From: Methylacidiphilum caldifontis
GTDB lineage: Bacteria > Verrucomicrobiota > Verrucomicrobiia > Methylacidiphilales > CAMAQI01
Assembly (NCBI GenBank): GCA_945877805.1
Contig: CAMCSM010000004.1
Coordinates: 1,582-65,581, forward strand
DNA length: 64,000 bases
Reading direction: 5' to 3'
A program made the translations under genes and the position numbers. The notes beneath the pieces were generated by a model. That model had not been told where the DNA came from, made no database searches, and was given only the letters and a program-made list of their open reading frames with translations. Shown in pieces: positions 737-64,000 of the stretch. How positions within the stretch are numbered: position 1 is the stretch's first letter; every line of letters starts with the position of its first letter.

Positions 737-1450
737 ATGACAATTGAGAGTCGATATCGAGAGATTCAAGGGAGGATTCAGCGCTCTTGCGAGAAAAGTA
801 GGCGAGGAATTGAAGAGGTTTTGTTGATTGGGGTCACGAAGACTCATCCCCCAGAAACAGTAGAGGAGGGGCTTCGTTTAGGTATTTTGCATCTGGGTGA
901 AAACAAGGTTCAAGAGGCTCTTGCTAAAAAAAATGTGGTAGGAGAAAAAGGGATTTGGCATTTGATCGGGCATTTACAGGGGAATAAAGTAAAAAATGCG
1001 GTTCAAATTTTCGATCAGATCGATTCAGTGGATACATTGGCTCTCGCTCAGGAGATATCAAAACGTTGTGAGATGATCGGGAAAAGAATGACTGTTTTAA
1101 TGGAGGTCAACGTTTCTGGGGAGGGGAGTAAATTTGGGGTTAAACCGGAGCAGGCGGCACGATTAGCGGAGGAAATCAACCGATTGCCCGCTCTTGAATT
1201 GAGGGGATTGATGACGATGGCCCCCTTGATGGAGGATTCGACGAAGAGCCGTCCTTATTTTGCACAATTAAGAGAATTGAGGGATCGGATTCAGCAAGAG
1301 ACGGGGCTTCATCTCCCAGAGCTTTCGATGGGGATGAGTCAAGATTTTGAGGTCGCGATTGAAGAGGGGAGCACGATGATTCGTCTCGGAACGGTTTTAT
1401 TTGGAACAAGGCCGAAGCCGACAAGGGAGTTCTTCGAGGATTCGATTTAA
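737..1450 (+). CDS. yggS: YggS-family pyridoxal-phosphate homeostasis protein
   Basis: 237 aa. GVTKTHP, HLIGHLQGNKVK and MGMSQDFEVAIEEGSTMIRLGTVLFG match the YggS/PROSC alanine-racemase-fold family. Confidence 0.85.
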   Translation: MTIESRYREIQGRIQRSCEKSRRGIEEVLLIGVTKTHPPETVEEGLRLGILHLGENKVQEALAKKNVVGEKGIWHLIGHLQGNKVKNAVQIFDQIDSVDTLALAQEISKRCEMIGKRMTVLMEVNVSGEGSKFGVKPEQAARLAEEINRLPALELRGLMTMAPLMEDSTKSRPYFAQLRELRDRIQQETGLHLPELSMGMSQDFEVAIEEGSTMIRLGTVLFGTRPKPTREFFEDSI

Positions 1451-1533
1451 CCGCCAAGTTAAATTCAACCCCGACAAAGAGTACGGGGTAGGAATTCGCC
1501 AAGATTATAAGATTTTATTTAAACCGCTTATTT
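1449..1533. repeat. Intergenic repeat modules: ccgccaagtt word, ccccg/cgggg hairpin, tttaaaccgcttat word
   Basis: aaccgccaagttaaattcaa + ccccgacaaagagtacgggg + aggaattcgccaaga...tttaaaccgcttat. Related copies lie at 37396-37452, 51490-51525 (opposite strand) and 54203-54282. Confidence 0.75.
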
Positions 1534-1622
1534 TCCTTTTCTCCTTTTGGCGCTCTTTGCCTTTACCTTGGCGGTTAATCCCATTTCTTAGATGGTTTGT
1601 CTGGAACAACCGAGGGCTGTGA

Positions 1623-2570: not shown

Positions 2571-2675
2571 TCGAGGAGATTAAAGAAAAAAAATAAAATT
2601 GAACAGAAATAACTATTTTCGGCACCCGCGTCCAAAACCGGAACAGATGAAGGGAAATACAAGGAGCTTGTTTGA

Positions 2676-2817
2676 GCCGCAAAAGAACGCAAAGAACACA
2701 AAAATGAAAAAATACAGCGATCTCTCTAATGAATGCAGGAATGCTTGAAAAAACAAAGGGAAATTATTTTCGTTTTTGCGTTCTTTGCGTTCTCTTGCGG
2801 CTAAATTCACTGTTTTT
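2676..2817. repeat. Inverted-arm element (29-bp arms, 68-bp spacer) whose right arm continues into module M1
   Basis: Left arm 2676-2704 gccgcaaaagaacgcaaagaacacaaaaa. Right arm 2773-2801 tttttgcgttctttgcgttctcttgcggc. They are complementary at 27/29 positions. 2773-2817 is the reverse complement of module M1 (27666-27710, 44414-44459). Confidence 0.8.
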
Positions 2818-2883
2818 AGATTCAAATGATCCAGGGATCTGATTATTATATTGATTTATTATGGGGGTGAGTATTATTGACCG

Positions 2884-4098
2884 ATGCTAGGATCGAAAAT
2901 TCCCTTAAATGAGTCCAAGCGTTTAGAGATGTTGACTCAATTTGAGATTATCGATTCCGATTTTGAAGAAAGCTATGATCAGATTGTCGAGCTCGCTTCG
3001 AAAATTTGTCAGACACCGATCGCCTTAATTAGTTTAATTGATGAAAAGCGCCAATGGTTTAAGGCCAAAGTCGGACTAGAGGTTCGGGAGACCCCTCGTG
3101 AGTTGGCCTTTTGTGGATATGCGGTTTATGAGTCGAGTTCCCTCATTGTTCAAGATACTTGGCTGGATGATCGATTTAAGAGTCATCCTTTAGTATTAGG
3201 AGATCCCAAGATTCGATTTTATGCCGGATTTCCGATTCAAGCGGAGAACGGGGTTACTTTAGGGACGGTCTGCGCAATTGATCGTGTTCCACGAGAACTA
3301 AGTACGGATCAGCTGCGCGCTTTAGAGATTTTAGCGAATCAAGTTGAGTCGTTACTACAGTTGCGAATCGCCTCTTTAAAGATTAAAAAGTATTTGCAAG
3401 AATTGGAAGAGGCGGCTCTTTTAAAAACAAAGTTTTTTTCTCTTATTTCCCATGATTTACGTTCTCCATTTAATGGGCTTCTTGGGTTTTCTAGTTTACT
3501 GAAGGAGGGAGCGGCTTCGATGAGTTCAGAAGCGATCGCTTTAATGGCGAATGATATTCACAGCACAGCTTCTGAAGCCTATGCTCTTTTAAATAATTTA
3601 TTAGAATGGTCGATGCTTGAGCGTGGGCTTATTCAGCCTGAGTACGTAGAGATTGAGTTAGGAGCGACGATTCGTAAAACGGAGATTCTTTATCGAGACT
3701 TACTGGCGCAAAAGAAAATTAAATTTACGGTTGATCCAAAAAGTTTTCTCGGATTGATGAAGACCGACGAAAGAATGTTAGAGACCATTCTTCGCAATTT
3801 GATCTCCAACGCGATTAAGTTTACTCCGTGTGAGGGACGGATTGATTGTTCTGTGATTCGAACAAATCAAGCCTACACGATTGAGGTTCGAGATTCAGGA
3901 GTGGGGATGAGCCAAGAGAAGGTCGCTAAGATTTTTTCTTCCTTTGCGATTTCCTCGACAGTAGGGACAGCGGGAGAGCGGGGCTCAGGTCTTGGACTGA
4001 ATATTTGTCATCAATTTATAGAACGGCTTAACGGAAAGATTGCGATTGAATCAGAGATTGGCAAGGGAACTGTTTTCCGAGTTGAAATTCCTGCGTAA
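2884..4098 (+). CDS. GAF-domain sensor histidine kinase
   Basis: N-terminal GAF-like region (CGYAV...FYAGFP...GTVCAIDR), HisKA H-box FFSLISHDLRSP, and HATPase N and G boxes (NLISNAIKFT, DSGVGM, GSGLGL). Confidence 0.85.
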   Translation: MLGSKIPLNESKRLEMLTQFEIIDSDFEESYDQIVELASKICQTPIALISLIDEKRQWFKAKVGLEVRETPRELAFCGYAVYESSSLIVQDTWLDDRFKSHPLVLGDPKIRFYAGFPIQAENGVTLGTVCAIDRVPRELSTDQLRALEILANQVESLLQLRIASLKIKKYLQELEEAALLKTKFFSLISHDLRSPFNGLLGFSSLLKEGAASMSSEAIALMANDIHSTASEAYALLNNLLEWSMLERGLIQPEYVEIELGATIRKTEILYRDLLAQKKIKFTVDPKSFLGLMKTDERMLETILRNLISNAIKFTPCEGRIDCSVIRTNQAYTIEVRDSGVGMSQEKVAKIFSSFAISSTVGTAGERGSGLGLNICHQFIERLNGKIAIESEIGKGTVFRVEIPA

Positions 4099-4166: not shown

Positions 4167-6386
4167 GTGATTTTATTGAATCGTATTCGACTCTTATTTC
4201 TTGGGTGGAAACGATTTGCTGATTTGCTTCAAACCTGTTTTTTTATTCTCCTTGCATCACTGTTGATCTCACTCCTTGTCCAAGAGGTGATGTATCAACC
4301 GAGAGGGGGGGGAGGTCGGTCGACAGAGTTTTTTTATGGCATGGCTTTGGTCATGCTCTTTTTTTTAAATTACAAAAAGTTAACCGTTGCCCGCTGGGTC
4401 GCTTTAATTGCGATCGTATGGACGACTTTGCTTTGGTTTGATCTCTTGTTGCCGGGAGCGATTGATGGGCCGATAGGGATCTTGTCATTTAAATCGATAG
4501 GAGATGAGTCTCTTTGTCTTTCTGCTTTTTCCGCGATTTCTCTTTTTGGATTAGGGTATCCGTTTTTCTGGATGGGAAAAAGTCGGATTGGGCTCATGAT
4601 TATTGTCGGGCTCGGAGTCTCCTTAATCGGTTTTTTACTCTTGAGTAAGATCGTTGTTTTTGAGCGCACGATCGATTTTTCGCATTTCTTGAGTTTATGT
4701 GCGGCCTCATTATTTTTAATTATTTTTGGAGCGGTCATTTTAGTGAAAGGGATTCAAGATTGCCTCGATGAGGGGACAGGATATTGGCCCCAGATCCCCT
4801 ATGCCGCAGCCTCTGTGATGTTTCTTTTAACGACGGTATTGTGGTCGGCTTTCCATATTCATGAACAACAGATTTGGACGCGAGAAGTCGAATCCTATAC
4901 CGTAAAGATCGGAGATCGACTCGGGCAAAAATTTCATGATCTCAGCTTGGAACTCGAGAGATTTAATCGATGGACATTTTATCGAGAGGGGAAATTGGCT
5001 TTAGAATGGCAGAAAGAGGCCCGTATTTTTTTAGATCATGAAAAAGCGGTTTTTTTCATCGATTATTTTCCTCGGTCAAGTTTAGAGGGAAAGATGGAGA
5101 GATCAAAAGAAGGGAATTCTTTTAACAGAATTTCCTATCAACAAATCGATTCGGCGGCACAGAAATCGATGTTGAATCATTCTCCCTGGATGACTGATCC
5201 TTTTATTATTCAAGAGGGCAGGTATGGGATCGGTTTTGTTTCGGTCTCTCATTCGCCCGGTCAACCTATCTCTGGATTCTTAATGGGGGTCGAGTTTGAG
5301 CCGCTTTTTAACGATCTCATCGACAATGAGAATATACCGATCGATTTTCAGCTGAAGTGTGGGAGTTTGACTTTAAGAGACTTTGAGGAAAAGGGAAGTT
5401 TTACAGATAAGAATCAATTTATAACAGAGATTTATTTATATGGGACTCGTTTCACGATTCATGCTGTGCCGAAAAAACTTTTTTTTCAAAAGCGGGATCA
5501 GTATTTATCTTTTTGTTTTTTTGTGGCCGGTCTTTCGTTCTCGTTATTATTTGGAATTTTAATTGGTCTCTACATACATCTGCATCATGACTCTTTAGAG
5601 TTGCGTGAGATTAACGATCGGCTGGGATTTGAAATCGAAGAACGGCGGAGTGCAGAGAGAGAGGGGGATCAAAAGAATCGAGATTTAGAGACATTAATCT
5701 ACGTCGTTGCTCATGATTTGAGGGAGCCACTACGAGGAATTGAAAGCTTTTCTCGACTCATCTACGAGCGCTATTTGGATCGCTTGGATGAAAAGGGGCA
5801 GGATTTTTTACGCAGAATCGTCTTTTCCTCGATGCGCTTAGATCGACTCCTCGACGATATTGCGATGCTTTCTCGAGTCCAAAGAGCAGAACCTCCCACT
5901 GCGCCGATCCCAGGGAGAGAGCTCGTTATGGAGGCGTTGAGTCGGTTAGAGGCGGTTTCGAAGGCGAAGAATGCGAATATTTCCGTTGAAAGGGATATTC
6001 CCTCCCTCTGGGTGAATCGGACATGGGGAACACAGGCGATCTTTAATTTAATTGGCAATGCGTTGAAGTTTACGAATCCCCATCAAGAGCCGGAGATTTT
6101 AGTGAAAGCCTATCGGAGCGAAAATGGAGAGCAGGAGGGGGTTCAGATATTAGATCGAGGGCCAGGGGTGAAGGCGGAGCATGTGGAGAGGATATTCAAG
6201 CTTTTTCAACGGGCGGTTGGGAGGGATATTGAGGGGACGGGGGCGGGACTCGCCATTGTGAAACAGATTGCCGAGCGTCATGGGGGGACCGTTTATTATG
6301 AGAATCGTGAGGGAGGGGGAAGTTGTTTTACGCTGACTTTTGCAAAGAGAGATCGATCTGTGATTCCCGAAAGTGAGGAGGGATGA
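4167..6386 (+). CDS. Multi-pass membrane sensor histidine kinase
   Basis: About 200 aa of hydrophobic helices at the N-terminus, H-box VVAHDLREPLR, and HATPase motifs NLIGNALKFT, DRGPGV, GTGAGLAIV. GTG start. Confidence 0.85.
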   Translation: MILLNRIRLLFLGWKRFADLLQTCFFILLASLLISLLVQEVMYQPRGGGGRSTEFFYGMALVMLFFLNYKKLTVARWVALIAIVWTTLLWFDLLLPGAIDGPIGILSFKSIGDESLCLSAFSAISLFGLGYPFFWMGKSRIGLMIIVGLGVSLIGFLLLSKIVVFERTIDFSHFLSLCAASLFLIIFGAVILVKGIQDCLDEGTGYWPQIPYAAASVMFLLTTVLWSAFHIHEQQIWTREVESYTVKIGDRLGQKFHDLSLELERFNRWTFYREGKLALEWQKEARIFLDHEKAVFFIDYFPRSSLEGKMERSKEGNSFNRISYQQIDSAAQKSMLNHSPWMTDPFIIQEGRYGIGFVSVSHSPGQPISGFLMGVEFEPLFNDLIDNENIPIDFQLKCGSLTLRDFEEKGSFTDKNQFITEIYLYGTRFTIHAVPKKLFFQKRDQYLSFCFFVAGLSFSLLFGILIGLYIHLHHDSLELREINDRLGFEIEERRSAEREGDQKNRDLETLIYVVAHDLREPLRGIESFSRLIYERYLDRLDEKGQDFLRRIVFSSMRLDRLLDDIAMLSRVQRAEPPTAPIPGRELVMEALSRLEAVSKAKNANISVERDIPSLWVNRTWGTQAIFNLIGNALKFTNPHQEPEILVKAYRSENGEQEGVQILDRGPGVKAEHVERIFKLFQRAVGRDIEGTGAGLAIVKQIAERHGGTVYYENREGGGSCFTLTFAKRDRSVIPESEEG

Positions 6387-9275: not shown

Positions 9276-10244
9276 GTGAATCCAAAGCCCGTACATCATC
9301 CGGTTTTGCTGGAGGCGTTTTTGGACGCCGTCCAGCCGAAGTCCGGTGAACGATGGATCGATGGGACTTTTGGGCGCGGTGGCCATACGACAGCGCTGTT
9401 GGAGCGAGGGGTGAAAGTCTTAGCGCTTGACCAAGATGCGGAGGCAGAGGCCGCTGCGGTTTTGGTGAAGGAACGTTGGGGGGAGTCGTTTCATTTCTTC
9501 CGAGAAAATTTTCGGGAGATGAAGCGGGTGAGTGAATCGATGGGATGGGAGAAGGTGGAGGGGATTCTTTTGGATCTCGGGGTTTCTTCTCCGCAGTTCG
9601 ATCAGGCGGAACGGGGGTTTAGTTTTCGGATGGAGGGACCTTTGGATATGCGGATGGATATGCGCCAGTTTTTGACTGCCGCGCGAATCATTTCCGGAGA
9701 GTCAGAGGAGGGGCTGAGTCGGATTTTTTGGGAGCTCGGTGAGGATCGGGATTCGCGAAAGATCGCTCGGGCGATTGTGAAGGCTCGGGAGGTGACTCCG
9801 ATTGAAACGACGACGCAATTGGCAGAGTTGGTCTCGGCAACAGTGCCGTGGCGGAAGGCGAAAGGGATTCATCCGGCGACGCAGGTTTTTCAAGCACTGC
9901 GTTTGAAGGTGAATGAGGAGATTGCGGTGTTGGAGGAGGTTTTGCCGGAGGGAACTGCCTTGTTATCGGAGGAGGGGCGGTTTGCGGTGATCAGTTTTCA
10001 TTCGGGTGAGGACAAGCGAGTGAAGCGTTTTTTTCAACGGCACGCTGCGGCGGAGTTGGAGAATCCGAGAAATGGGTGGCTGGAGCCGAATCCAGAGCGT
10101 TGGTATGGGCGGGTGAAGCGATTTTTGCCGGAAGAAGCGGAAATACAGCTCAATCCGAGATCGCGAAGTGCGCGACTTCGGGTGGCCTGGAAAAGTTTAA
10201 AGGAAGAAAAAAAGAGGAAATATTATGAGCCGAAATCGAGTTAA
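9276..10244 (+). CDS. rsmH: 16S rRNA (cytosine1402-N4)-methyltransferase
   Basis: HHPVLL...DGTFGRGGHT...LLDLGVSSPQFD...RGFSF...ISFHSGEDKRVK...NPRSRSARLR are RsmH/MraW hallmark motifs. GTG start. Confidence 0.9.
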   Translation: MNPKPVHHPVLLEAFLDAVQPKSGERWIDGTFGRGGHTTALLERGVKVLALDQDAEAEAAAVLVKERWGESFHFFRENFREMKRVSESMGWEKVEGILLDLGVSSPQFDQAERGFSFRMEGPLDMRMDMRQFLTAARIISGESEEGLSRIFWELGEDRDSRKIARAIVKAREVTPIETTTQLAELVSATVPWRKAKGIHPATQVFQALRLKVNEEIAVLEEVLPEGTALLSEEGRFAVISFHSGEDKRVKRFFQRHAAAELENPRNGWLEPNPERWYGRVKRFLPEEAEIQLNPRSRSARLRVAWKSLKEEKKRKYYEPKSS

Positions 10245-17563: not shown

Positions 17564-17580
17564 CCGACTGGAGTAAATAT

Positions 17581-18438
17581 ATGGAAAACGAAAATCAACA
17601 ACAACAAGGTTCGTCCAATGGTGGCGGACTCAAACTGATGACGGTCTTTATCGTCGTCCTTGCCCTTCACGTTCTCGTCATTGGTGGCGTGAGCGCTTAC
17701 AGCCTTCTTAAGGGGAACACAGAGCCCGTGGCTCTTGAGGAAAACAATGCAGAAAAACAAGAGGCAACCCCGGCAGCCGCAGAGACCCCTGCATTAGAAA
17801 CAACGGCGCCTGTCGTGGCTGAAAATAGTGGAACCTCATCGGTGATCGCCCCAGAAGCGACTCCGACAGTGGCTCCTGTGATCACCTCACCTGAGCATTC
17901 TCTCACAACAGCGCCGATTGCTTCGGCTCCTGTCGTGGAGGCAGCTCCTAAACATGAGATGAGCTCGAATTCGAGTTATCATGTCGTTAAGGGAGATACC
18001 TTGAGCAAAATTGCTCGAATGCACGGAATGAAAGTTGCGGATCTCAAGGCCTTAAATGGAATGAAATCTGACAATCTAAAGATTGGACAGGAAATGAAAG
18101 TCCAAAGCGGAAACGCAGTGGTTTCCTCTCCTGTTGCTTCGAGTGTTAAGAGCGAGGTTGCTAGTTCAACTCCCGCTCCTGTTGCTGCAAAAGCGACGAC
18201 GACCGCAAGTTATGTCGTTGGAAAGGGAGATACATTAACCAAGATTGCAAAGCAATATAACACCACTCCTTCCGCAATTATGGCAGCAAACAAGCTTGCC
18301 GATGCGCGTAAATTAAAGATTGGAATGAAACTAAGCATCCCTTCGCAAACACGTCAGCAAGTCAGTGAGCAACAAGTGCCGGCTTCGACTTTGGAGAAAT
18401 CCTCAGGAACAAGCGCTGATTTTGCGATGGCAAAATAA
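17581..18438 (+). CDS. Bitopic membrane protein with two C-terminal LysM domains
   Basis: The ATG at 17581 is preceded by GGAG. The protein has a TM helix ([22 protein letters not shown]), an Ala/Pro/Thr-rich linker and two LysM repeats ([17 protein letters not shown]...LKIGQEMKV and [17 protein letters not shown]...[10 protein letters not shown]). Confidence 0.8.
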
Positions 18439-18516
18439 TTTTTTCGAAGAAAAAATTATGAATTTATGAAAACACTATTTCTTAAGACTTTGAAAATTTA
18501 AAATAGCAAAAAAATT

Positions 18517-27485: not shown

Positions 27486-27509
27486 TTCCATTTCTTGGAT
27501 TGGACTAAA

Positions 27510-27657
27510 CCTAGATTCGGCAGTTGAAATGGAGGGGCAGTGGCTCACTGCCTTCCCCGTAGCCCGAGGCACAGGGCCTGTGCCCCTCCAAATAGGACTC
27601 ACCCTTTGGGTGAAGGCTAATGGAGAGGTAAATGTGACTTCAACTGCCGAATTTAGG
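27510..27657. repeat. 148-bp element with 19-bp terminal inverted repeats that carries the 59-nt two-hairpin module M2
   Basis: The TIRs cctagattcggcagttgaa (27510-27528) and ttcaactgccgaatttagg (27639-27657) are complementary at 18/19 positions. M2 lies at 27531-27589. A second, inverted M2 copy is at 56391-56449. Confidence 0.85.
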
Positions 27658-27665
27658 CTAAATCT

Positions 27666-27710
27666 AAAAACAATGAATTTAGCCACAGAGAACGCAAAGA
27701 ACTCAAAAAT
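27666..27710 (+). repeat. Module M1 (aaaaacaRtgaatttagccacagagaacgcaRagaactcaaaaat)
   Basis: Near-identical to 44414-44459 on the same strand and to 2773-2817 on the opposite strand. Confidence 0.85.
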
Positions 27711-27932
27711 TTTGGTTCCTTCCCGTTTGAAAGGGAAAGGGATAATTGCGGAAAAATTGCACGTTCACCTTTTGTGGTTAAATGGATTACCGCTAGGTTA
27801 ATAAGTTACAGAGCGTGTCACGGACTGCACTAGGCACATTCAGTAGGGTAAACTTTTTATTTATATCGCTCGTTTTTATTTAACCGATCGTCTATTTTTA
27901 ATTTTGCTCGATCTGATTAGTTTCTTGTGTTT

Positions 27933-29948
27933 ATGAAAAAATTATCGAAAGAAAAGAAACCTCAAAGGCGTGAGATATTGGCGGGAGATCCGCGGGAACT
28001 CCAAGGCCAAGGGATGTATCAAGACCTTTTTCAACTCGCTCCCGTGGGGTATTGCACGCTCACCGTGGAGGGACTCATCCTTGAAGCGAATCTCACGATC
28101 ACCACTCTTTTGGGGGTTCCTAAGAGTAAACTTGTGAATTGTCCCTTCAGCTCCTTTATCCTCAAAGCGAATCAGGACGTTTTCTATCTGAATAAGGATC
28201 GACTTTTTAAAACAGGTAAATCTCAATCGTTCGATCTGCAAATAGTTCAAAATGAGGGAACCTCTTTCTGGGCGAATCTCGTGATCGCCCTCAAAAATAT
28301 TAACGAAAGATCGTTGATTTACCTGACCTTGACTAATGTCGAGGACAGAAAACAAATGGAGTTGACGCTGGCATTCACCGCGGAACAGCTTGCGCGAACT
28401 GGAAGAATCGCCAAAATTGGAGGGTGGCATCTTGATCTTCAAACCAAGAATCTTTTCTGGTCAGAAGAGACCTGTCGTATTCATGAAGTCGATCCCCCCG
28501 TCGCCCCAAGATTAGAAGAGGCGATCGGTTTTTATGCTCCTGAAGCCCAAGAGACCATCAGGGATCTCGTACAGGCTGGAATCGATCACGGAACCGATTG
28601 GGATGTGGAGTTGCCACTGATTACGGCGAACGGGCGTCGGATTTGGGTGCGCGCGCAAGGCTCTGCAGTGATGAAAGAGGGAAAAGTTGTGGAGCTTTTG
28701 GGGACTTTTCAGGATATTACGGAGCGCAGGACATTGGAAACCCAACTCCGACAAGCACAGAAAATGGAGACGATCGGTCGACTGGCGGGGGGAATCGCGC
28801 ATGATTTTAATAATATGCTCACCGTGATTCTCGGTCATGTGGAAATGGCTTTGCCTTCCTTGGCTCCCTCCGATCCCATTCATGGAGCATTTTTGGAGAT
28901 CGGACAAGCAGCAGAGCGCTCGGCAGAGCTCACCCGCCAATTGCTCGCATTTTCGCGTCAACAAATCGTAGCCCCTAAGGTCCTCTCATTGAACAATTTC
29001 GTGAATGAGACGATCCAAATGGTGAAGCGTCTCATTGGACCGAATATCACGCTGATTTGGAATCCTGCGGAGGATCTCAAGCTCGTAAAAATCGACCCGA
29101 GTCAAGTCCACCAGATCATCACCAATCTTTGCGTCAATGCCCGTGATGCGATCTCCGAGAACGGAACCATTACGATCGAAACCGGAAATCATCAAGTGAC
29201 CCCAAGCAAATTTGAAGGATCTATGGACTTGCCGCTTGGGGACTATGTGAGATTGAGCGTGCGCGATGATGGCTGTGGGATGAGCCCTGAAATCTGTGCT
29301 CACATTTTTGAGCCCTTTTATACAACAAAAGAGGTCAACAGTGGTACTGGTCTCGGTCTTGCGATGGTCTATGGGATTGTCAAACAAAACGACGGGAGCA
29401 TTCGCGTTTCGAGTCGACTCGGAGAAGGGACAACTTTCCAGATTGATCTCCCTGCCTATGACGGTGCGATGGATCCGTCGCTCCCAGAAGCAGAATCGAA
29501 AGTAAAATTTCAAGGGAGGGAGACCCTCCTGATCATCGAAGATGAATTATTGCTTCTCGATATGACCCAGCGAATGCTGGAGTCGAAAGGATACACCGTC
29601 CTCACCGCGAGCTCCCCTTCTGAGGCCCTTCGGGTGGTCGAGGTGCATGGGGAAAAAATAGATCTCCTCCTCACCGACGTCCAGATGCCTGAAATGAATG
29701 GTTGCGAGTTCTCTAAGCTTCTTCAATCCCGTTACCCCCATCTCTGCTCTCTTTTTATGTCTGGCTTCACCGCCAAAGGCTTGACGCTCGATTGGACGCT
29801 GAATGAGGGAATCGAGTTTATCGAAAAACCGTTTACGATCAATGGATTGTCGGAAAAAGTTCGTCAAATCTTAGATCAATCGACGAAATCAGAGGAGTCT
29901 AAAAAAACGGTTCCTTCCCATTTCCGGGGGAATAAAGAAATCTCTTAG
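27933..29948 (+). CDS. Hybrid sensor histidine kinase (PAS-PAS-HisKA-HATPase-receiver)
   Basis: Two PAS-like regions, H-box IAHDFNNMLTVILG, HATPase motifs (NLCVNARDA, DDGCGM, GTGLGLAMV), and a C-terminal receiver (LLIIEDE...LLLTDVQMPEMNG...IEKPF). Confidence 0.88.
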   Translation: MKKLSKEKKPQRREILAGDPRELQGQGMYQDLFQLAPVGYCTLTVEGLILEANLTITTLLGVPKSKLVNCPFSSFILKANQDVFYLNKDRLFKTGKSQSFDLQIVQNEGTSFWANLVIALKNINERSLIYLTLTNVEDRKQMELTLAFTAEQLARTGRIAKIGGWHLDLQTKNLFWSEETCRIHEVDPPVAPRLEEAIGFYAPEAQETIRDLVQAGIDHGTDWDVELPLITANGRRIWVRAQGSAVMKEGKVVELLGTFQDITERRTLETQLRQAQKMETIGRLAGGIAHDFNNMLTVILGHVEMALPSLAPSDPIHGAFLEIGQAAERSAELTRQLLAFSRQQIVAPKVLSLNNFVNETIQMVKRLIGPNITLIWNPAEDLKLVKIDPSQVHQIITNLCVNARDAISENGTITIETGNHQVTPSKFEGSMDLPLGDYVRLSVRDDGCGMSPEICAHIFEPFYTTKEVNSGTGLGLAMVYGIVKQNDGSIRVSSRLGEGTTFQIDLPAYDGAMDPSLPEAESKVKFQGRETLLIIEDELLLLDMTQRMLESKGYTVLTASSPSEALRVVEVHGEKIDLLLTDVQMPEMNGCEFSKLLQSRYPHLCSLFMSGFTAKGLTLDWTLNEGIEFIEKPFTINGLSEKVRQILDQSTKSEESKKTVPSHFRGNKEIS

Positions 29949-29969
29949 GAATGCAGGAATGCATGAAAA

Positions 29970-37382: not shown

Positions 37383-37395
37383 GAAAGAAGGGTTG

Positions 37396-37884
37396 AACCG
37401 CCAAGTTAAAGACAAAGTTCGCCAAGGTTATAAAATTCTATTTAAACCGCTTATCTTTACTCATTAAAAGGAGTCTCACACTAAAACACAAAGGAAAAGG
37501 CATTCAAAACCAGGTTTAACCTAAAAAAAGCAGTTGGAACCACGGATATCACGGATCACACGGATTTCCAATAATTTAGGGAAATTTGCACGTTCACCTT
37601 TTGGGTGAAGAGAAAAACGGAGATTAATTCTCATAAACTCCTCCATCCGTGGTATCTGTGTTATCCGTGGTTAAATGGATTGCCGAATTTAGGTTTAACC
37701 GCGGATGAACACGGATTTAAAACTTGGCGAATTTTGTCTTTAACTTGGCGGTTAAACATCTCTTTCGCCGCGTCGCTGCGCGAGGCACTCCTCTGTATTT
37801 TGAATGCCTTTTCCTTTGTGACTTTGTGCCTTGGTGTGAGACAGGTATTCAATGTCTTTAAGCTGCGTTAACTGCGGATTAATC
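37396..37884. repeat. About 490-bp gap built entirely of repeat modules, in interleaved inverted order A-B-C / C'-A'-B'
   Basis: A at 37396-37429 is complementary to A' at 37721-37756. B at 37473-37509 is complementary to B' at 37797-37842. C at 37538-37565 is complementary to C' at 37645-37672. Module D (gcgcgaggcactcctctg) lies at 37757-37800. Confidence 0.8.
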
Positions 37885-43414: not shown

Positions 43415-44409
43415 GTCGTCGACGAACGAGTCCAATTGATCGAATTCGATCGAATTGGGGCCGTCTCTGGGGAGAGCCGATTGGATGGGTCTGGCTCTCT
43501 GCCTTTTTGCTTCATCTGGTCGCGCTTTTTTGCGTTCAAGATTTTGTGCTATTCAAAGGGATGAGCGCGCACGAGCATGGGCTCTTTATTGTTCAAAGCA
43601 TGCGGTTTCCTACAGTAGAGAAGAGCCCTATCAATTTAAATCCCCCTCGGGAGGTTGAGATTTCAACCGAGATCGTTCCTTCAAATCAAAAAATCAATAC
43701 CACGGCACCGGAGAAGAAAAAGGAGGAGGGTAAAATGGTGGAGGTTCCTCAATGGAACCCGCTCGCAAAGTTATCGGGACCGGCTCCAAATCCAGACTCA
43801 AAAGAGGAGGGAGAGGTGACAACGGGGGTTCCGGGAGTGAAGATTTGGGAGTTGAAGAGTGCGGTTAAAAAAGTCATTTTTTTAATCGATGTTTCAGGGA
43901 CGATGTGGAATGAGATTGAGGGAAAGTGCGGCTTTGAAATCGCTCAAGAGGAGGTGATTCGTTCGATCAAATGGATGCCTCCAGAGATGGTTTTTAATGT
44001 GATCTATTATTCCGATGCCACTTCGATGATGTCACCGACACTTGTTTCGGCGACAGCGGAAAATAAAGAGTTGGCGCGACGCTTTTTAAGGCAGAAGCCG
44101 ATGTTGAGTGGTGCGACCGATTTTTTTAAGGGGATTAAGGCGGCGTTTGAGCAGCGTCCAGAGGCGATTTTTATTTTTACCGACGGGGAGATGGATCTTC
44201 CCCGATGGAAAATTCCAAGTCTTATGGATTCGTTAAAGGAACGAGCGGGGGTCTCAATTCCTGTTTTTGGGGTCGGGTTTTTTTACGAGAAAAATCAGGA
44301 GTCGTTAGATGTTTTACAGAAGATCTGCTTTACAACGGGGGGAGATTTTAAGCTCTATTTTTACTATTCAGCTCCTGTTAAAACGGAGAAAAAACGAAAT
44401 CCACCTTAA
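43411..44409 (+). CDS. Membrane-anchored von Willebrand factor type A domain protein
   Basis: N-terminal TM helix (IGWVWLSAFLLHLVALFCV). C-terminal vWA domain with a MIDAS-like motif, VIFLIDVSGTM...FTDGE. Confidence 0.7.
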   Translation: MSRRRTSPIDRIRSNWGRLWGEPIGWVWLSAFLLHLVALFCVQDFVLFKGMSAHEHGLFIVQSMRFPTVEKSPINLNPPREVEISTEIVPSNQKINTTAPEKKKEEGKMVEVPQWNPLAKLSGPAPNPDSKEEGEVTTGVPGVKIWELKSAVKKVIFLIDVSGTMWNEIEGKCGFEIAQEEVIRSIKWMPPEMVFNVIYYSDATSMMSPTLVSATAENKELARRFLRQKPMLSGATDFFKGIKAAFEQRPEAIFIFTDGEMDLPRWKIPSLMDSLKERAGVSIPVFGVGFFYEKNQESLDVLQKICFTTGGDFKLYFYYSAPVKTEKKRNPP

Positions 44410-44413
44410 ATAA

Positions 44414-44459
44414 AAAAACAGTGAATTTAGCCACAGAGAACGCAGAGAACTCAAAAATG
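44414..44459 (+). repeat. Module M1
   Basis: aaaaacagtgaatttagccacagagaacgcagagaactcaaaaatg. It starts 5 nt after the vWA gene stop and matches 27666-27710. Confidence 0.85.
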
Positions 44460-44530
44460 AAAACGGAGGAGATTCCTCTCTCAAATACGCATAGACGTCA
44501 ACCTAAGGATAACAAACCAAATACAATTTT

Positions 44531-44660
44531 TACCGCAGGGTAAACGGAGGGCAGCAGAGGAAAATTCAATTTACTATTTATTTAAAAACCAACATACCTG
44601 CCTTTTTTCCCAATTAAAAATAATCATAACCTCCGTTGTCCTCCGTTTACCCAGCGGTGA
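44531..44660. repeat. Inverted-arm element (about 30-bp arms, 69-bp AT-rich spacer)
   Basis: taccgcagggtaaacggagggcagcagagg (44531-44560) against cctccgttgtcctccgtttacccagcggtga (44630-44660). They are complementary apart from 4 mismatches and 1 indel. Confidence 0.75.
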
Positions 44661-44676
44661 AACTGTCTTTCTCTGC

Positions 44677-45737: not shown

Positions 45738-45972
45738 ATTAAAAGGAGTCTCACATCAAGACGCTAAAACACAAAGTTCGATTTAAAACTCTCTGCGTCT
45801 CAGCGGCTCCGCGCGAGGCACTCCTCTGTATTTTTTATCATTTTCTTAAGTTTACGCCTATGGGTATTTGCGGGACGGCTCTCCCCTGTTTTGAATGGCT
45901 TTAAATCCGTGTTTATCCGTGGTTAAAAATGCCTTTAAATTCGTGCTCATTCGTGTCCATTGGTGGTTAAAA
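45738..45972. repeat. Run of repeat modules (B in reverse, D, and cacggat/attcgtg words)
   Basis: attaaaaggagtctcaca... (as at 37463-37509), ctctctgcgtctcagcggctccgcgcgaggcactcctctg, and aaatccgtgtttatccgtggttaaaaatgcctttaaattcgtgctcattcgtgtccattggtggttaaaaat. Confidence 0.75.
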
Positions 45973-48586: not shown

Positions 48587-48732
48587 TCACTTATTCTCGC
48601 TCCTCTCGGAAGCCGGGATAGCTGAATAGCTTGATAGCGAGTAAGCCGGATAGCTTAAATCCATTTAAAATGCAGGGGAAATTCTAATCCGCAGATGACG
48701 CAGATTTTCCTGCATTCCTTAAAGAAAAATGT

Positions 48733-48831
48733 CTTTTCCTTTGTGACTTCGTGTCTTCGTGTGAGACGGGTATTCAATGTCTTCAATCAGTGTAAATTAG
48801 CGAAAATTAGCGGTTCAAATTCTTTGCCTTT
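48733..48831 (+). repeat. Module B, 99 bp
   Basis: cttttcctttgtgacttcgtgtcttcgtgtgagacgggtattcaatgtcttcaatcagtgtaaattagcgaaaattagcggttcaaattctttgccttt. It is 92/99 identical to 54450-54548. The first half is shared with 37808-37857. Confidence 0.88.
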
Positions 48832-51366: not shown

Positions 51367-51489
51367 TAATGTTTTTAGGATACTGTTTGTTAAGTTGACG
51401 CCTATGCGCACCAGCGGAAGAAGAGGTTGCATCCCCGAAAAAGGATCAGTGCAGATCAGTGAAGATAAGCGGTTAAAAATGACTCTAAA

Positions 51490-51545
51490 AACTTGGCGAA
51501 TTTTGAATTTAACTTGGCGGTTAAGCCTCTCTTTCTCTGCGTCTG
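51490..51545 (+). repeat. Modules A' and D (truncated)
   Basis: aacttggcgaattttgaatttaacttggcggttaag is 33/36 identical to 37721-37756. It is followed by cctctctttctctgcgtctg. Confidence 0.85.
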
Positions 51546-51579
51546 AAATACCTTCTCTTGACGAATCTAGTTTTAAATT

Positions 51580-51641
51580 TGCTCTCGGAGTGACTCGAAC
51601 ACTCGACCCACCCCGAAAGAATTCGGGGTTGCTCTTTCCTA
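51580..51641 (-). pseudogene. tRNA-Arg-derived 3' fragment (part of the D arm, an altered anticodon arm, T arm, acceptor 3' strand)
   Basis: 51581-51610 is identical (30/30) to 51914-51943 of the intact tRNA. Similarity resumes at agagcaac on the far side of a replaced anticodon arm (accccgaattctttcggggt, 20 nt instead of 17). There is no 5' acceptor strand or D-stem 5' half. Confidence 0.75.
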
Positions 51642-51943
51642 ATCTTTCTTTTCCAGATAATATTGAATCAACTTGGGATTCTTTTTTGCTTTTAAATATC
51701 GCTCTAAATCTCTCGCTTCTTTAAGGTTTTTACATTCACGAGTAACAACCACAGACAATGGCCGTCCAATCCGTTTACTACTTGGACACGATCCATGTTG
51801 GTGATGGTCGAGACGACGTTGAAAATTATCAGTCGATCCTAAATAGTGTCGCCCTGTTGTCCCTTGAAGTAAATAAACGCAAATCACCTCAATCCTTTTC
51901 TTTTTTAAAATCTGCTCTCGGAGTGACTCGAACACTCGACCCA
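51581..51943 (-). mobile_element. Candidate GIY-YIG cassette bounded by 30-bp direct repeats derived from the tRNA 3' end
   Basis: The direct repeats gctctcggagtgactcgaacactcgaccca at 51581-51610 and 51914-51943 bracket the GIY-YIG ORF. No integrase or transposase is present. Confidence 0.4.
51639..51887 (-). CDS. GIY-YIG nuclease-superfamily small protein
   Basis: (V)ICVYLLQGTTGRHYLGSTDNFQRRLDHHQHG... is the GIY-YIG/URI core pattern. I chose the GTG at 51887 because AAGGA lies 5 nt upstream. The track's longer frame (to 51944) would begin inside the tRNA. Confidence 0.75.
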   Translation of the reverse strand: MICVYLLQGTTGRHYLGSTDNFQRRLDHHQHGSCPSSKRIGRPLSVVVTRECKNLKEARDLERYLKAKKNPKLIQYYLEKKD

Positions 51944-51986
51944 CGGATTAGAAATCCGTTGCTCTATCCAGCTGAGCTACGAGAGC
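51913..51986 (-). tRNA. tRNA-Arg (anticodon UCU)
   Basis: Manual cloverleaf: GCTCTCG-TA-GCTC-AGCTGGATA-GAGC-A-ACGGA-TTTCTAA-TCCGT-GGGTC-GAGTG-TTCGAGT-CACTC-CGAGAGC-A. All four stems are fully paired and CCA is not encoded. Confidence 0.93.
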
Positions 51987-54406: not shown

Positions 54407-54445
54407 GATTCGTTCCGGCAGCCGGACGAATCTTTACTGTTTTTA
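54407..54445 (+). terminator. Terminator-like hairpin with a T tract, about 300 bp from the nearest stop codon
   Basis: gattcgt(t)ccgg-ca-gccggacgaatc followed by tttactgttttta. Confidence 0.5.
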
Positions 54446-54449
54446 ATGC

Positions 54450-54548
54450 CTTTTCCTTTGTGACTTCGTGTCTTGGTGTGAGACGGGTATTTAATGTCTT
54501 CAATCAGTGTAAATTAGCGTCGATTAGCGGTTTCAATTCTTTGCCTTT
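54450..54548 (+). repeat. Module B, 99 bp
   Basis: 92/99 identical to 48733-48831. Confidence 0.88.
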
Positions 54549-54639: not shown

Positions 54640-54790
54640 CTCGGATTGAGGCTAATTGACCGATGGACTGATTGGCTGTTGGGTTTAAACCGATCAGCCA
54701 AAAGTCACTTTGCGACTGTACAGCCCATTAGTCCATTAGCCTCTCTTCCTCTATCCGTGTTCATTCGTGTCCATCCGTGGTTAATTCGGT
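54640..54790 (+). repeat. Element R1, copy a (MITE-like palindromic core gaggctaat...attagcctc plus ccgtg-word tail)
   Basis: 54640-54748 is 109/109 identical to 56190-56298. The ends are imperfect inverted repeats: gaggctaattgaccgatggactgattggctgt against acagcccattagtccattagcctc. Confidence 0.9.
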
Positions 54791-56189: not shown

Positions 56190-56325
56190 CTCGGATTGAG
56201 GCTAATTGACCGATGGACTGATTGGCTGTTGGGTTTAAACCGATCAGCCAAAAGTCACTTTGCGACTGTACAGCCCATTAGTCCATTAGCCTCTCTTCTC
56301 CGCCTCTTCCTCTATCCGTGTTTAT
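56190..56325 (+). repeat. Element R1, copy b
   Basis: Identical to copy a over 109 bp, then carries an 11-bp insertion (tccgcctcttc) that the third copy shares with one mismatch (cccgcctcttc). Confidence 0.9.
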
Positions 56326-56365: not shown

Positions 56366-56500
56366 TATCACCAAAATGGTGATAAAAAATGGAGGGGCAC
56401 AGGCTCTGTGCCTCATCGGACGGGGAAGGCAGTGGGCCACTGCCCCTCCAGTTCTAATGACGAATCTGGGTTTATCAGTGTCCATCCGTGGTTCCAACTG
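56366..56500. repeat. Second copy of the M2-bearing element (inverted relative to 27510-27657)
   Basis: M2 at 56391-56449. The flanking hairpin atcacc-aaaa-tggtgat corresponds to tcaccc-aaa-gggtga in copy 1. The flank cgaatctgggttta corresponds to cgaatctaggttta. It ends in atccgtggttccaactgcttttt, the reverse complement of 37525-37547. Confidence 0.8.
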
Positions 56501-56602
56501 CTTTTTCTGTTTTGAACGGGATCGACCTCGAATAGTCGAGTAAAAAGGGGAAATTTTCACTTTTTGACCCCCTTTTACAAAGTTTTGAAGAAAGTTCTCT
56601 AT

Positions 56603-59200: not shown

Positions 59201-59442
59201 AGATCTTAAATAAAGTTCGGAGCAATCTATTAGAGAAGATAAAACAATATCTCTTAGGAAAGCAGGAAATCAGGAAAAGAGTCCCGATAAAAATAGGGAT
59301 ACGAAGACTTGGAAATTAAAATTGTTTTTTTCATGCTTTCCTGCATTCCTTAGAGATTTTGGCGTTTAAGTATTGTTATCTGTAAAAAATGGGGTTACTT
59401 CGGAGGGGGATTCGAGGAGTATAAACTCAAAGAGAAACTATT

Positions 59443-63926: not shown

Positions 63927-64000
63927 CAAATGGACACTGATGAACACGGATAGAGGAAGAGGCGGGGAAGAGAGGCTAATGGACTAATGGGCTGTACAGT
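63927..64000 (-). repeat. Element R1, copy c (inverted, truncated by the window end)
   Basis: The reverse complement reads actgtacagcccattagtccattagcctctcttccccgcctcttcctctatccgtgttcat..., matching copies a and b. It also has an 11-bp insertion like copy b's, differing at one base. Confidence 0.85.

Follow-up and report, generated by a model that had tools for sequence, protein, structure and literature searches.

What is the long inverted repeat that stands upstream of hldD in Methylacidiphilum caldifontis, and why do two further loci in the same stretch of DNA share its shape? The stretch in question, hereafter the window, comprises 64,000 nucleotides (nt) of contig CAMCSM010000004.1, and all coordinates given without an L-number are positions in it. 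It has a G+C content of 46% and carries a cell-division/cell-wall (dcw) cluster, a pst operon, nusB, an aspartate kinase gene, and further housekeeping genes; hldD occupies positions 1623-2570 on the minus strand, and its product is 98% identical to that of the Methylacidiphilum sp. Phi metagenome-assembled genome (MAG) L001 and 91% identical to that of the verrucomicrobial MAG L002. The original prediction had described three inverted repeats (loci 1 to 3) with a common geometry and locus-specific arm sequences, and had read them as a sign of a structural requirement, possibly including a leader hairpin of hldD, or of several unrelated families of miniature inverted-repeat transposable elements (MITEs). 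Our analysis shows that these inverted repeats are copies of dispersed families and not a control element of hldD. Both the arms and the whole paired units (doublets) occur in multiple copies at non-orthologous sites across species, genera, and phyla, as well as in phages; they also form nested mosaics and decay into solo arms. With a probability of about 0.6, we regard the three loci as members of a superfamily of non-coding dispersed repeats of ~30-190 bp, of the MITE or REPIN kind.

The three inverted repeats were found where they had been predicted, and they far exceed chance expectation. More specifically, when an inverted repeat was defined as two arms of at least 22 nt that are at least 80% complementary and lie within 260 nt, the window yielded 6 such repeats versus 0.03 expected from Markov-1 shuffles, in which more than 20 matched bases were never observed. 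The spacers of these six long repeats measure 49-79 nt. Predicted fold energies of -50 to -55 kcal/mol came with z-scores of -5.8 to -8.0 on both strands and, as the proposed comparison with shuffled controls revealed, the z-scores overall range from -5.5 to -8. The arms are indeed built of words: Tandem Repeats Finder detected a period of 9 at 2678-2703, 2767-2799, and 37541-37565, and the arms overall are tandem arrays having a period of 8-10. When six arms were folded singly, the energies were between 0 and -3.6 kcal/mol (z between +1.2 and -1.8), none of them significant.

T precedes and A follows the hairpins on both strands, the 3' flank is A-rich, the loops span 50-80 nt, and the U-tract geometry is absent. 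Around the three loci, terminator-like sites numbered two in all (0, 1, and 1 per region), a count that does not exceed that of the shuffles, and both lie away from the doublets. Intrinsic terminators were ruled out by the loop length, by the A-rich 3' flank on both strands, and by the location of these sites away from the doublets. Likewise, promoter-like consensus sites around the three loci were no commoner than in shuffles, and none coincided with a doublet. Searches against Rfam, in which the gathering threshold was applied to the window and to 14 array-rich loci and E values as high as 5 were also admitted for the window, returned nothing beyond tRNA and group II intron; an Rfam leader or small RNA family was thus rejected for want of a covariance-model match.

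At locus 1, the arms (2672-2710 and 2767-2805; 39 nt, 90% complementary) enclose a core (2676-2704 / 2773-2801) in which, as predicted, 27/29 positions are complementary. Equally correct was the observation that both core mismatches read A-C on the plus strand but become G-U on the minus strand, where the fold is an uninterrupted 30-bp stem. The claim of locus-specific arm sequences, in contrast, could not be upheld. In a self-comparison of the window, the right arm with its flank (2767-2822) recurred at 44414-44463 and 27661-27709, and a solo copy of this ~55-nt unit (the A-end) was also found at L001 12222-12273, so that solo copies are present in the window (two), in L001, and in L088. An exact scan of metagenomes with the A-end gave 8 matches, of which 3 were real (L082, L087, and L088). 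Contigs L082 and L087, which are Methylacidiphilum-like and have 42% G+C, carry both arms of locus 1 around a wholly different spacer, downstream of csrA in L082 and beside a response-regulator gene in L087. Five of the six independent A-end copies lie 0-35 nt past a stop codon and are co-oriented with the gene concerned; locus 1 itself sits in a divergent promoter region. Its spacer segment 2723-2753 matches 59326-59356 and 29941-29969 and corresponds to one half of the 59245-59361 doublet element. Since the spacer thus holds a half-copy of another arm family, the locus 1 element is a mosaic.

The family of locus 1 also provided four doublets for the covariation check that had been proposed for the arms: 0/25 predicted pairs were doubly changed, and the arms proved to be conserved in sequence. 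In the L001 orthologue, one arm is short of exactly one 9-nt word, a loss that is uncompensated; relative to the window, L001 further shows, in the inner stem, a double change from G-C to A-U, as well as one change that mends a mismatch. In addition, the A-end of locus 1 departs from its family consensus at three positions, and all three departures raise the match to its own partner.

Loci 2 and 3 recur as well. The arms of locus 2 (33 nt, 85% complementary, spacer 69) have, together with their spacer, a reversed homologue at L098 1675-1820, ~700 nt downstream of hldD, and the arm is also present at a contig end at L095 3960-4000; L098 represents a species with an HldD 87% identical to that of the window, and the hldD orthologue of L095 shows the same identity. 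At locus 3, which lies between convergent genes, the arms (28 nt, 86% complementary, spacer 79) share pieces with 56484-56506, 27742-27774, and 45900-45927, and its head and words (AACCACGGAT..CACGGAT) occurred at 96 places in 84 viral-contig loci. The right arm of the 37465-37845 pair, one of two that are interleaved around locus 3 (Table 1), recurs at 48728-48783 and 54440-54500, and the arms of the 59245-59361 doublet form another doublet in a different genus (L091 4929-5010; 52% G+C). The intergenic DNA of the window is, by self-comparison, a patchwork of such short modules. In the viral-contig scan, the locus 2 arm had 0 matches, and neither locus 1 nor locus 2 matched any GenBank plasmid or phage by BLAST. 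In all relatives fetched for loci 2 and 3 (L089, L091, L092, and L101-L104), synteny is lost right at the neighboring genes, and thus filled and empty sites could not be compared there.

Table 1. Coordinates of the repeat features discussed in the text (window positions)
Feature	Position	Strand	Remarks
Locus 1, left arm (B-end)	2672-2710	+	Head TTTGAGCCGC, then words AAAAGAACGC and AAAGAACAC; sequence kept in L001, L082, and L087
Locus 1, spacer	2711-2766	.	2723-2753 is a half-copy of another arm family (AGGAATGCAGGAA words)
Locus 1, right arm and conserved outer flank (A-end)	2767-2830	-	CTAAAAACAGTGAATTTAGCC and GAACGCA words
Solo A-end, locus 1 family	44407-44463	+	Begins at the stop codon of a VWA-domain gene
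Solo A-end, locus 1 family	27659-27711	+	Also at the orthologous site in L088
Locus 2, whole unit	44516-44665	+	Arms 44528-44560 and 44630-44662; words TAAACGGAGG / CAGAGG
Locus 3, doublet	37538-37672	+	Arms 37538-37565 and 37645-37672; CACGGAT words behind an AACC head
Outer CGCCAAG-word pair around locus 3	37392-37757	+	Arms 37392-37426 and 37723-37757; 94% complementary; spacer 296
CACAAAG/CACGAAG-word pair, interleaved with the CGCCAAG pair	37465-37845	+	Arms 37465-37509 and 37798-37845
CGCCAAG-word doublet	1447-1578	+	Between an alanine-racemase-like gene and the hldD 3' end; L001 keeps the left arm only
AGGAAAGCAGGAA-word doublet	59245-59361	+	Between pstS and pstC
GGCTAAT-word doublet, copy 1	54640-54748	+	109 nt; 100% identical to copy 2
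GGCTAAT-word doublet, copy 2	56190-56298	+	The aspartate kinase gene lies between copies 1 and 2
GGCTAAT-word doublet, third copy, partial	63939-64000	-	Window end
Classical MITE-like insertion	27509-27658	+	150 nt; 19-bp terminal inverted repeats (CCTAGATTCGGCAGTTGAA); CTAAA duplication
Solo composite module	48728-48831	-	CACGAAG and TTAGCG words; 92% identical to 54445-54548

The arms of the different families follow a shared grammar. Read from the outside inward, they begin with an AT-rich head (TTTAACCGC, TTTTACCGC, TTTAGCCGC, or TTCACCAC), behind which stand words such as CGCAAAG, CGCAGAG, CACGAAG, CACAAAG, CACGGAT, and CGCCAAG, all of them CRCRRAG-like. Tandem CRCRRAG words were enriched ~30-fold in the Methylacidiphilales loci (23 versus 0.8 expected) and ~8-fold in the Planctomycetota loci, which served as an independent test set (12 versus 1.6 expected); in other phyla, they were barely enriched (4 versus 1.3 expected). 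The profile of the head before the first word is W-T-T-T-Y-A-A-C, in DNA having a median G+C content of 0.60, and near-identical arms were found in contigs of 54-64% G+C. Scans of IMG/VR yielded 40, 24, and 84 loci for three families (median G+C of the contigs, 0.60), with up to 11 pattern matches on a single 39-kb viral contig; chance would account for ~2-7 matches per scan, by our own rough estimate of the size of the collection. Third words and heads not demanded by the search pattern are present at these matches, an independent sign that they are real. Two of these contigs are bona fide tailed-phage genomes; L120/L135 and L190 encode terminase, portal, head, and tape-measure proteins.

The arms of a doublet also share a polarity, their heads almost always lying on the outside. 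In 1.25 Mb of viral loci holding 402 purine-word arrays, the head-out (purine-arm-first) arrangement of paired arrays outnumbered the reverse by 113 to 6, which, as doublets were counted on both strands, corresponds to ~56 versus ~3 doublets. All of the Methylacidiphilales doublets found are head-out; the three exceptions come from one Planctomycetota and one Bacteroidota locus. Because head-out polarity is identical on both strands, it is uninformative with regard to the transcribed strand. Nor is any sense-strand function claimed for the solo arrays, since two proxies of array orientation relative to genes disagreed (113 versus 65 by one; 54 versus 42, not significant, by the other), and ORF calling is unreliable in DNA of 60% G+C. 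Spacers, on the other hand, measured 10-232 nt on viral contigs (most commonly 31-49) and 11-296 nt at genomic loci; the proposed fixed spacing of ~70 bp therefore does not hold. A requirement for structure only, as originally proposed, is not supported either, as it would not impose the shared grammar and the single polarity on arms that, moreover, are conserved in sequence. The notion of several MITE families came closest to the evidence, except that the families are related to one another and that the flagged loci show neither a target-site duplication nor a cognate insertion sequence.

Presence/absence polymorphism between relatives was observed in four cases. The 27509-27658 element, which is flanked by the CTAAA duplication, is missing from the orthologous site in L088. 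In related phages, a 68-nt array cassette parts two genes in L134 that lie 4 nt apart in L148, and a 30-nt solo array with ACCTA on both flanks is present in L190 and L226, while L214 has no array and a single ACCTAG. Finally, a 116-nt mosaic is present in one Planctomycetota chromosome (L013) and absent from another (L008). Given the multi-copy, non-orthologous distribution of these elements, insertion is the simpler reading of these differences.

The basic unit is the arm, composed of an AT-rich TTTAACC-like head, then G/A-C, then two to four degenerate, purine-rich CRCRRAG-type words set 8-10 nt apart, and a doublet consists of two such arms placed head-out around a variable AT-rich spacer. 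The following mechanism would account for these observations. The elements would be copied to new sites, now or formerly, by a trans-acting protein that recognizes the head and the word array, and such recognition would keep the arm sequence and the head-out polarity constant while the spacers drift. The complementarity of the arms would stem mainly from both being copies of one recognized end, with a possible contribution from occasional correction templated by the hairpin or from selection for fold-back; effects on neighboring genes, exerted by long hairpins in transcripts, as between pstS and pstC or upstream of hldD, would be secondary. Under this proposal, the hairpin shape arises because two copies of the same recognized end lie head-out, and the potential to form a hairpin is a by-product or, possibly, a secondary RNA function.

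Several observations weigh against this proposal. The three flagged doublets have no flanking target-site duplication and no empty-site allele for comparison, and the presence/absence cases could be deletions rather than insertions, particularly those with short flanking repeats. No transposase or other candidate mobilizing gene was detected among the window ORFs scanned, those of the dcw cluster having been left unscanned; the sole insertion sequence in the data, an IS4-like element of L001, has unrelated ends (CACAGCCATCCCACAGGGATGGTT) and is no candidate parent. On viral contigs, solo arms are ~5 times commoner than doublets, which leaves unsettled what the replicating unit is. Finally, a few compensatory changes hint that pairing matters, namely, the G-C to A-U change between the window and L001 at locus 1, the three changes of the locus 1 A-end, and a G-C to A-T change in locus 2 between the window and L098. 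In view of these changes and of the doublet in the pstS-pstC interval, a secondary role, as RNA or through fold-back, is conceivable.

An RNA role is the core of the strongest competing explanation, in which the elements would be retained because, once transcribed, doublets serve their hosts as long RNA hairpins that shield the mRNA upstream of them from 3' exonucleases or provide sites of processing or attenuation; REP elements of the malEFG and pst operons act in this manner. Consistent with it are the high stability of the folds on either strand, the positioning of most A-end copies shortly past stop codons, the few compensatory changes in the arms, and the doublet that separates pstS from pstC, genes of one operon for which unequal expression would be expected. 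However, the majority of elements are solo arms, which are unable to form a hairpin, and the orientation relative to genes is inconsistent; doublets also occur in a divergent promoter region, as at locus 1, and between convergent genes, as at locus 3. In addition, it is the arm sequence that is conserved, with no covariation, and the U-tract geometry is lacking. We therefore consider this explanation unlikely as a general account, albeit partly compatible with the dispersal of mobile repeats. Somewhat less likely still is the possibility that the arrays are fixed binding sites, spaced at about one helical turn, for a conserved DNA-binding protein of host or phage with a nucleoid-associated or regulatory role. 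The word spacing of 8-10 bp, the retention of an AT-rich head even in DNA of ~60% G+C, and the occurrence of the same words in two phyla and in phages would fit binding arrays, but many word variants coexist within one genome, no gene class is consistently associated with them, and fixed sites would account neither for presence/absence polymorphism nor for non-orthologous positions. Recognition by other known factors was also rejected: GGA, the motif of CsrA-binding repeats, is found in only some word families, the resemblance to DnaA boxes and parS half-sites is merely partial, and Chi-like sites do not predict head-out polarity.

Two further explanations are much less probable. Generation in place, whereby the word arrays arise by replication slippage and one arm is copied into an inverted partner through intramolecular template switching, with no transposition, agrees with the loss of exactly one 9-nt word from the L001 arm and with the three changes in the locus 1 A-end, given that changes which all raise the match to the partner are typical of quasi-palindrome correction; nevertheless, it fails to explain why the same heads, words, and whole units including the spacer stand at non-orthologous sites across species, phyla, and phages, or why polarity is head-out, and we regard it as very improbable. 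The least credible alternative is a dedicated 5' leader hairpin that regulates hldD, as had been thought conceivable in the original prediction. On the hldD strand, both A-C mismatches are indeed replaced with G-U, and inverted repeats adjoin hldD in the unrelated genomes L002, L009, L010, L035, and L099. In contrast, elements of the same kind stand downstream of csrA in L082, next to a response-regulator gene in L087, in the pstS-pstC interval, and between convergent genes; the hldD orthologue of L095 (87% identity) has no element upstream; and no predicted promoter places the element in the hldD transcript. (In L098, the contig begins 16 nt before hldD, and nothing is visible in those 16 nt.) The element next to hldD in L002 belongs to a different family, a perfect 36-nt pair standing 40 nt from the start codon and thus at a different distance from it, and elsewhere the elements lie on either side of hldD and belong to different families.

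With respect to hldD itself, we observed that inverted-arm elements of different families flank this gene on one or both sides in the five genomes just named and in the window, these genomes belonging to Verrucomicrobiota, Planctomycetota, and Chitinophagaceae. This may reflect only that hldD stands alone between long intergenic regions.

Several side observations concern arrays outside the window. In phage L135, CGCAGAG/CGCGGAG arrays lie inside naive ORF calls (9506-9835, 5615-5639, and 6114-6129; the portal ORF and an ORF by the head gene), and these could be in-frame low-complexity insertions, as 9 nt equals 3 codons, or ORF-calling errors in G+C-rich DNA. At L170 ~5080-5190, the spacer of a CACGAAG-word doublet holds a second long hairpin (GTCATTGCGAGCGAAGCGAAGCAATCCCC ... 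GGGGATTGCTTCGTCGCTACGCTCCTCGCAATGAC), which may be another dispersed repeat nested inside it. Two Bacteroidota loci, L032 2695-2802 (AGTATGGG x4) and L067 11548-11636 (TTCTTCGG-type), carry inverted arms made of other tandem words; the architecture of tandem-word inverted repeats thus extends beyond the PVC (Planctomycetes-Verrucomicrobia-Chlamydiae) group, with different words and, in L067, with the opposite polarity.

Other observations concern rearrangement and further modules. At the 1447-1578 doublet, L001 retains the left arm, but the spacer and the right arm have given way to 3.5 kb of DNA with genes for glucuronate isomerase (UxaC) and a TonB-dependent receptor (L001 6950-10513, versus 1468-1621 in the window). 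The breakpoint coincides exactly with the inner edge of the retained arm, a position suggesting that doublets are hot spots of rearrangement. The IS4-like insertion sequence of L001 (3690-5137, versus 3431-3440 in the window; DDE_Tnp_1 and DUF4372), which has 24-bp inverted ends and a 9-bp duplication, splits a GAF histidine-kinase gene that is intact in the window. Segments 27530-27590 and 56390-56474 share a G+C-rich hairpin module (TGGAGGGGCAGTGGC...GCCCCTCCA; 86% over 85 nt) that is dispersed and of a non-word type, one copy lying inside the 27509-27658 element and the other in intergenic DNA downstream of the aspartate kinase gene. The 3' ~40 nt of tRNA-Arg(TCT), at 51913-51986 on the minus strand, is duplicated ~330 nt away with 95% identity (51571-51611 / 51904-51944); the interval contains a small minus-strand ORF, CGCCAAG-word arms adjoin at 51458-51543, and the arrangement resembles the trace left by a tiny element that integrated at this tRNA. 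The gap of ~950 nt in the ORF calls at 17564-18516, at the end of the dcw cluster, reads as coding with two LysM-like repeats and is probably a gene with an unresolved start or frame rather than intergenic DNA.

The word-array family explains much of the odd low-complexity intergenic sequence of this genome and calls for caution before small ORFs, 'CRISPR-like' arrays, or gene-specific leaders are annotated in such DNA. Elements of this kind break assemblies, seed rearrangements, and can alter mRNA stability, and the 3.5-kb block of L001 abuts a half-doublet. If the grammar and polarity reflect one recognition system, they would define a class of miniature repeats that is widespread in a little-studied superphylum and in the phages of its members. 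A bolder and distinctly tentative extension, which we hold to be rather doubtful at present, is that these repeats form a new superfamily of word-array repeats common to Verrucomicrobiota, Planctomycetota, and their tailed phages, whose grammar implies a conserved trans-acting protein, either transposase-like or a DNA/RNA-binding factor of host or phage. Were this true, the ~30-nt solo arrays, inserted together with a duplication of 5 bp, would rank with the smallest known mobile units, and phages would be a vehicle for the spread of arrays between hosts.

How do these elements compare with known systems? No published account of them was found in Methylacidiphilum genome papers, in surveys of REP, REPIN, and HUH elements, or by keyword searches of the searchable literature. 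Like the Correia/NEMIS MITEs of Neisseria, for which co-transcription in hairpin form is possible, the elements comprise intergenic, multi-copy units of 100-190 bp that have terminal inverted repeats of ~25-35 nt and undergo nested insertion. The likeness to MITEs extends to short non-coding units bounded by terminal inverted repeats, with many copies at unrelated sites that are polymorphic between relatives, and, for the 27509-27658 element, to a target duplication. ACCTA flanks the 30-nt solo array in L190. Unlike Correia/NEMIS elements, however, the flagged doublets lack target-site duplications, no parent insertion sequence with matching ends is present in the data, and the arms are arrays of degenerate words with one grammar across many families and phyla. 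The short tandemly repeated repetitive (STRR) sequences of cyanobacteria and the small dispersed repeats (SDR) of Nostoc are reportedly intergenic arrays of short tandem words and units of 20-30 nt inserted in other repeats, respectively. The present elements resemble them in being intergenic short-word arrays, in having very small units located within other repeats, and in comprising families alike in fold and little alike in sequence, but they occur in another phylum and use other words (the cyanobacterial ones being heptamers such as CCCCAGT); we know of no description of a conserved TTTAACC-like head or of head-out pairing in STRR or SDR. Integron attC sites, with imperfect inverted repeats of 57-141 nt, are the textbook example of recombination sites that are alike in fold rather than in sequence. 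In our elements, the R''/R' core (RYYYAAC / GTTRRRY) is found at some arm ends only (GTTAAAT and GTTAAAC) and fails at loci 1 and 2; there is neither a cassette array nor intI, and the elements are scattered among housekeeping genes. Identity with attC was rejected because of the inconsistent core sites and the housekeeping neighbors.

REP dimers, REPINs, and BIMEs are mobilized by RAYT, a TnpA-REP transposase. They are extragenic and multi-copy, and consist of two short units inverted 20-110 bp apart that form one long hairpin; they show a strong orientation preference, occur as singlets and in mosaic clusters, and have spacers that are conserved or variable depending on the family (PMC3733652, PMC3116915). 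The elements described here are similarly inverted pairs at a short distance that form one long hairpin, with a marked preference for one orientation. In contrast to REPs, their arms are purine-rich arrays of tandem words rather than palindromes of 20-40 nt, the arm ends (TTTGAGCCGC, TTTTACCGC, and GGAACCAC) lack a GTAG/CGTC foot, no RAYT was seen among the window ORFs scanned (0/36 had a Y1 transposase domain when compared with Pfam), solo arms are very frequent, and tailed phages carry them. REP identity was rejected because the arms do not fold on their own and have no GTAG or CGTC foot. The 'atypical secondary structures' that flank class 3 TnpA-Y1 (HUH) genes in Planctomycetes and Acidobacteria have a CnGA foot 5' of the hairpin (PMC6006769). 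Like our elements, they are high-copy, dispersed, structured repeats of the same superphylum, and they have been proposed to be REP-like and mobilized in trans (PMC6006769); compared by description, a CnGA foot is present at only some of our elements (for example, CCGA in L002 and CGGA at 54640) and is absent from the three flagged loci. REP dimers/REPINs and the 'atypical secondary structures' beside class 3 TnpA-Y1 genes are the nearest concepts to the word-array repeats of Methylacidiphilum.

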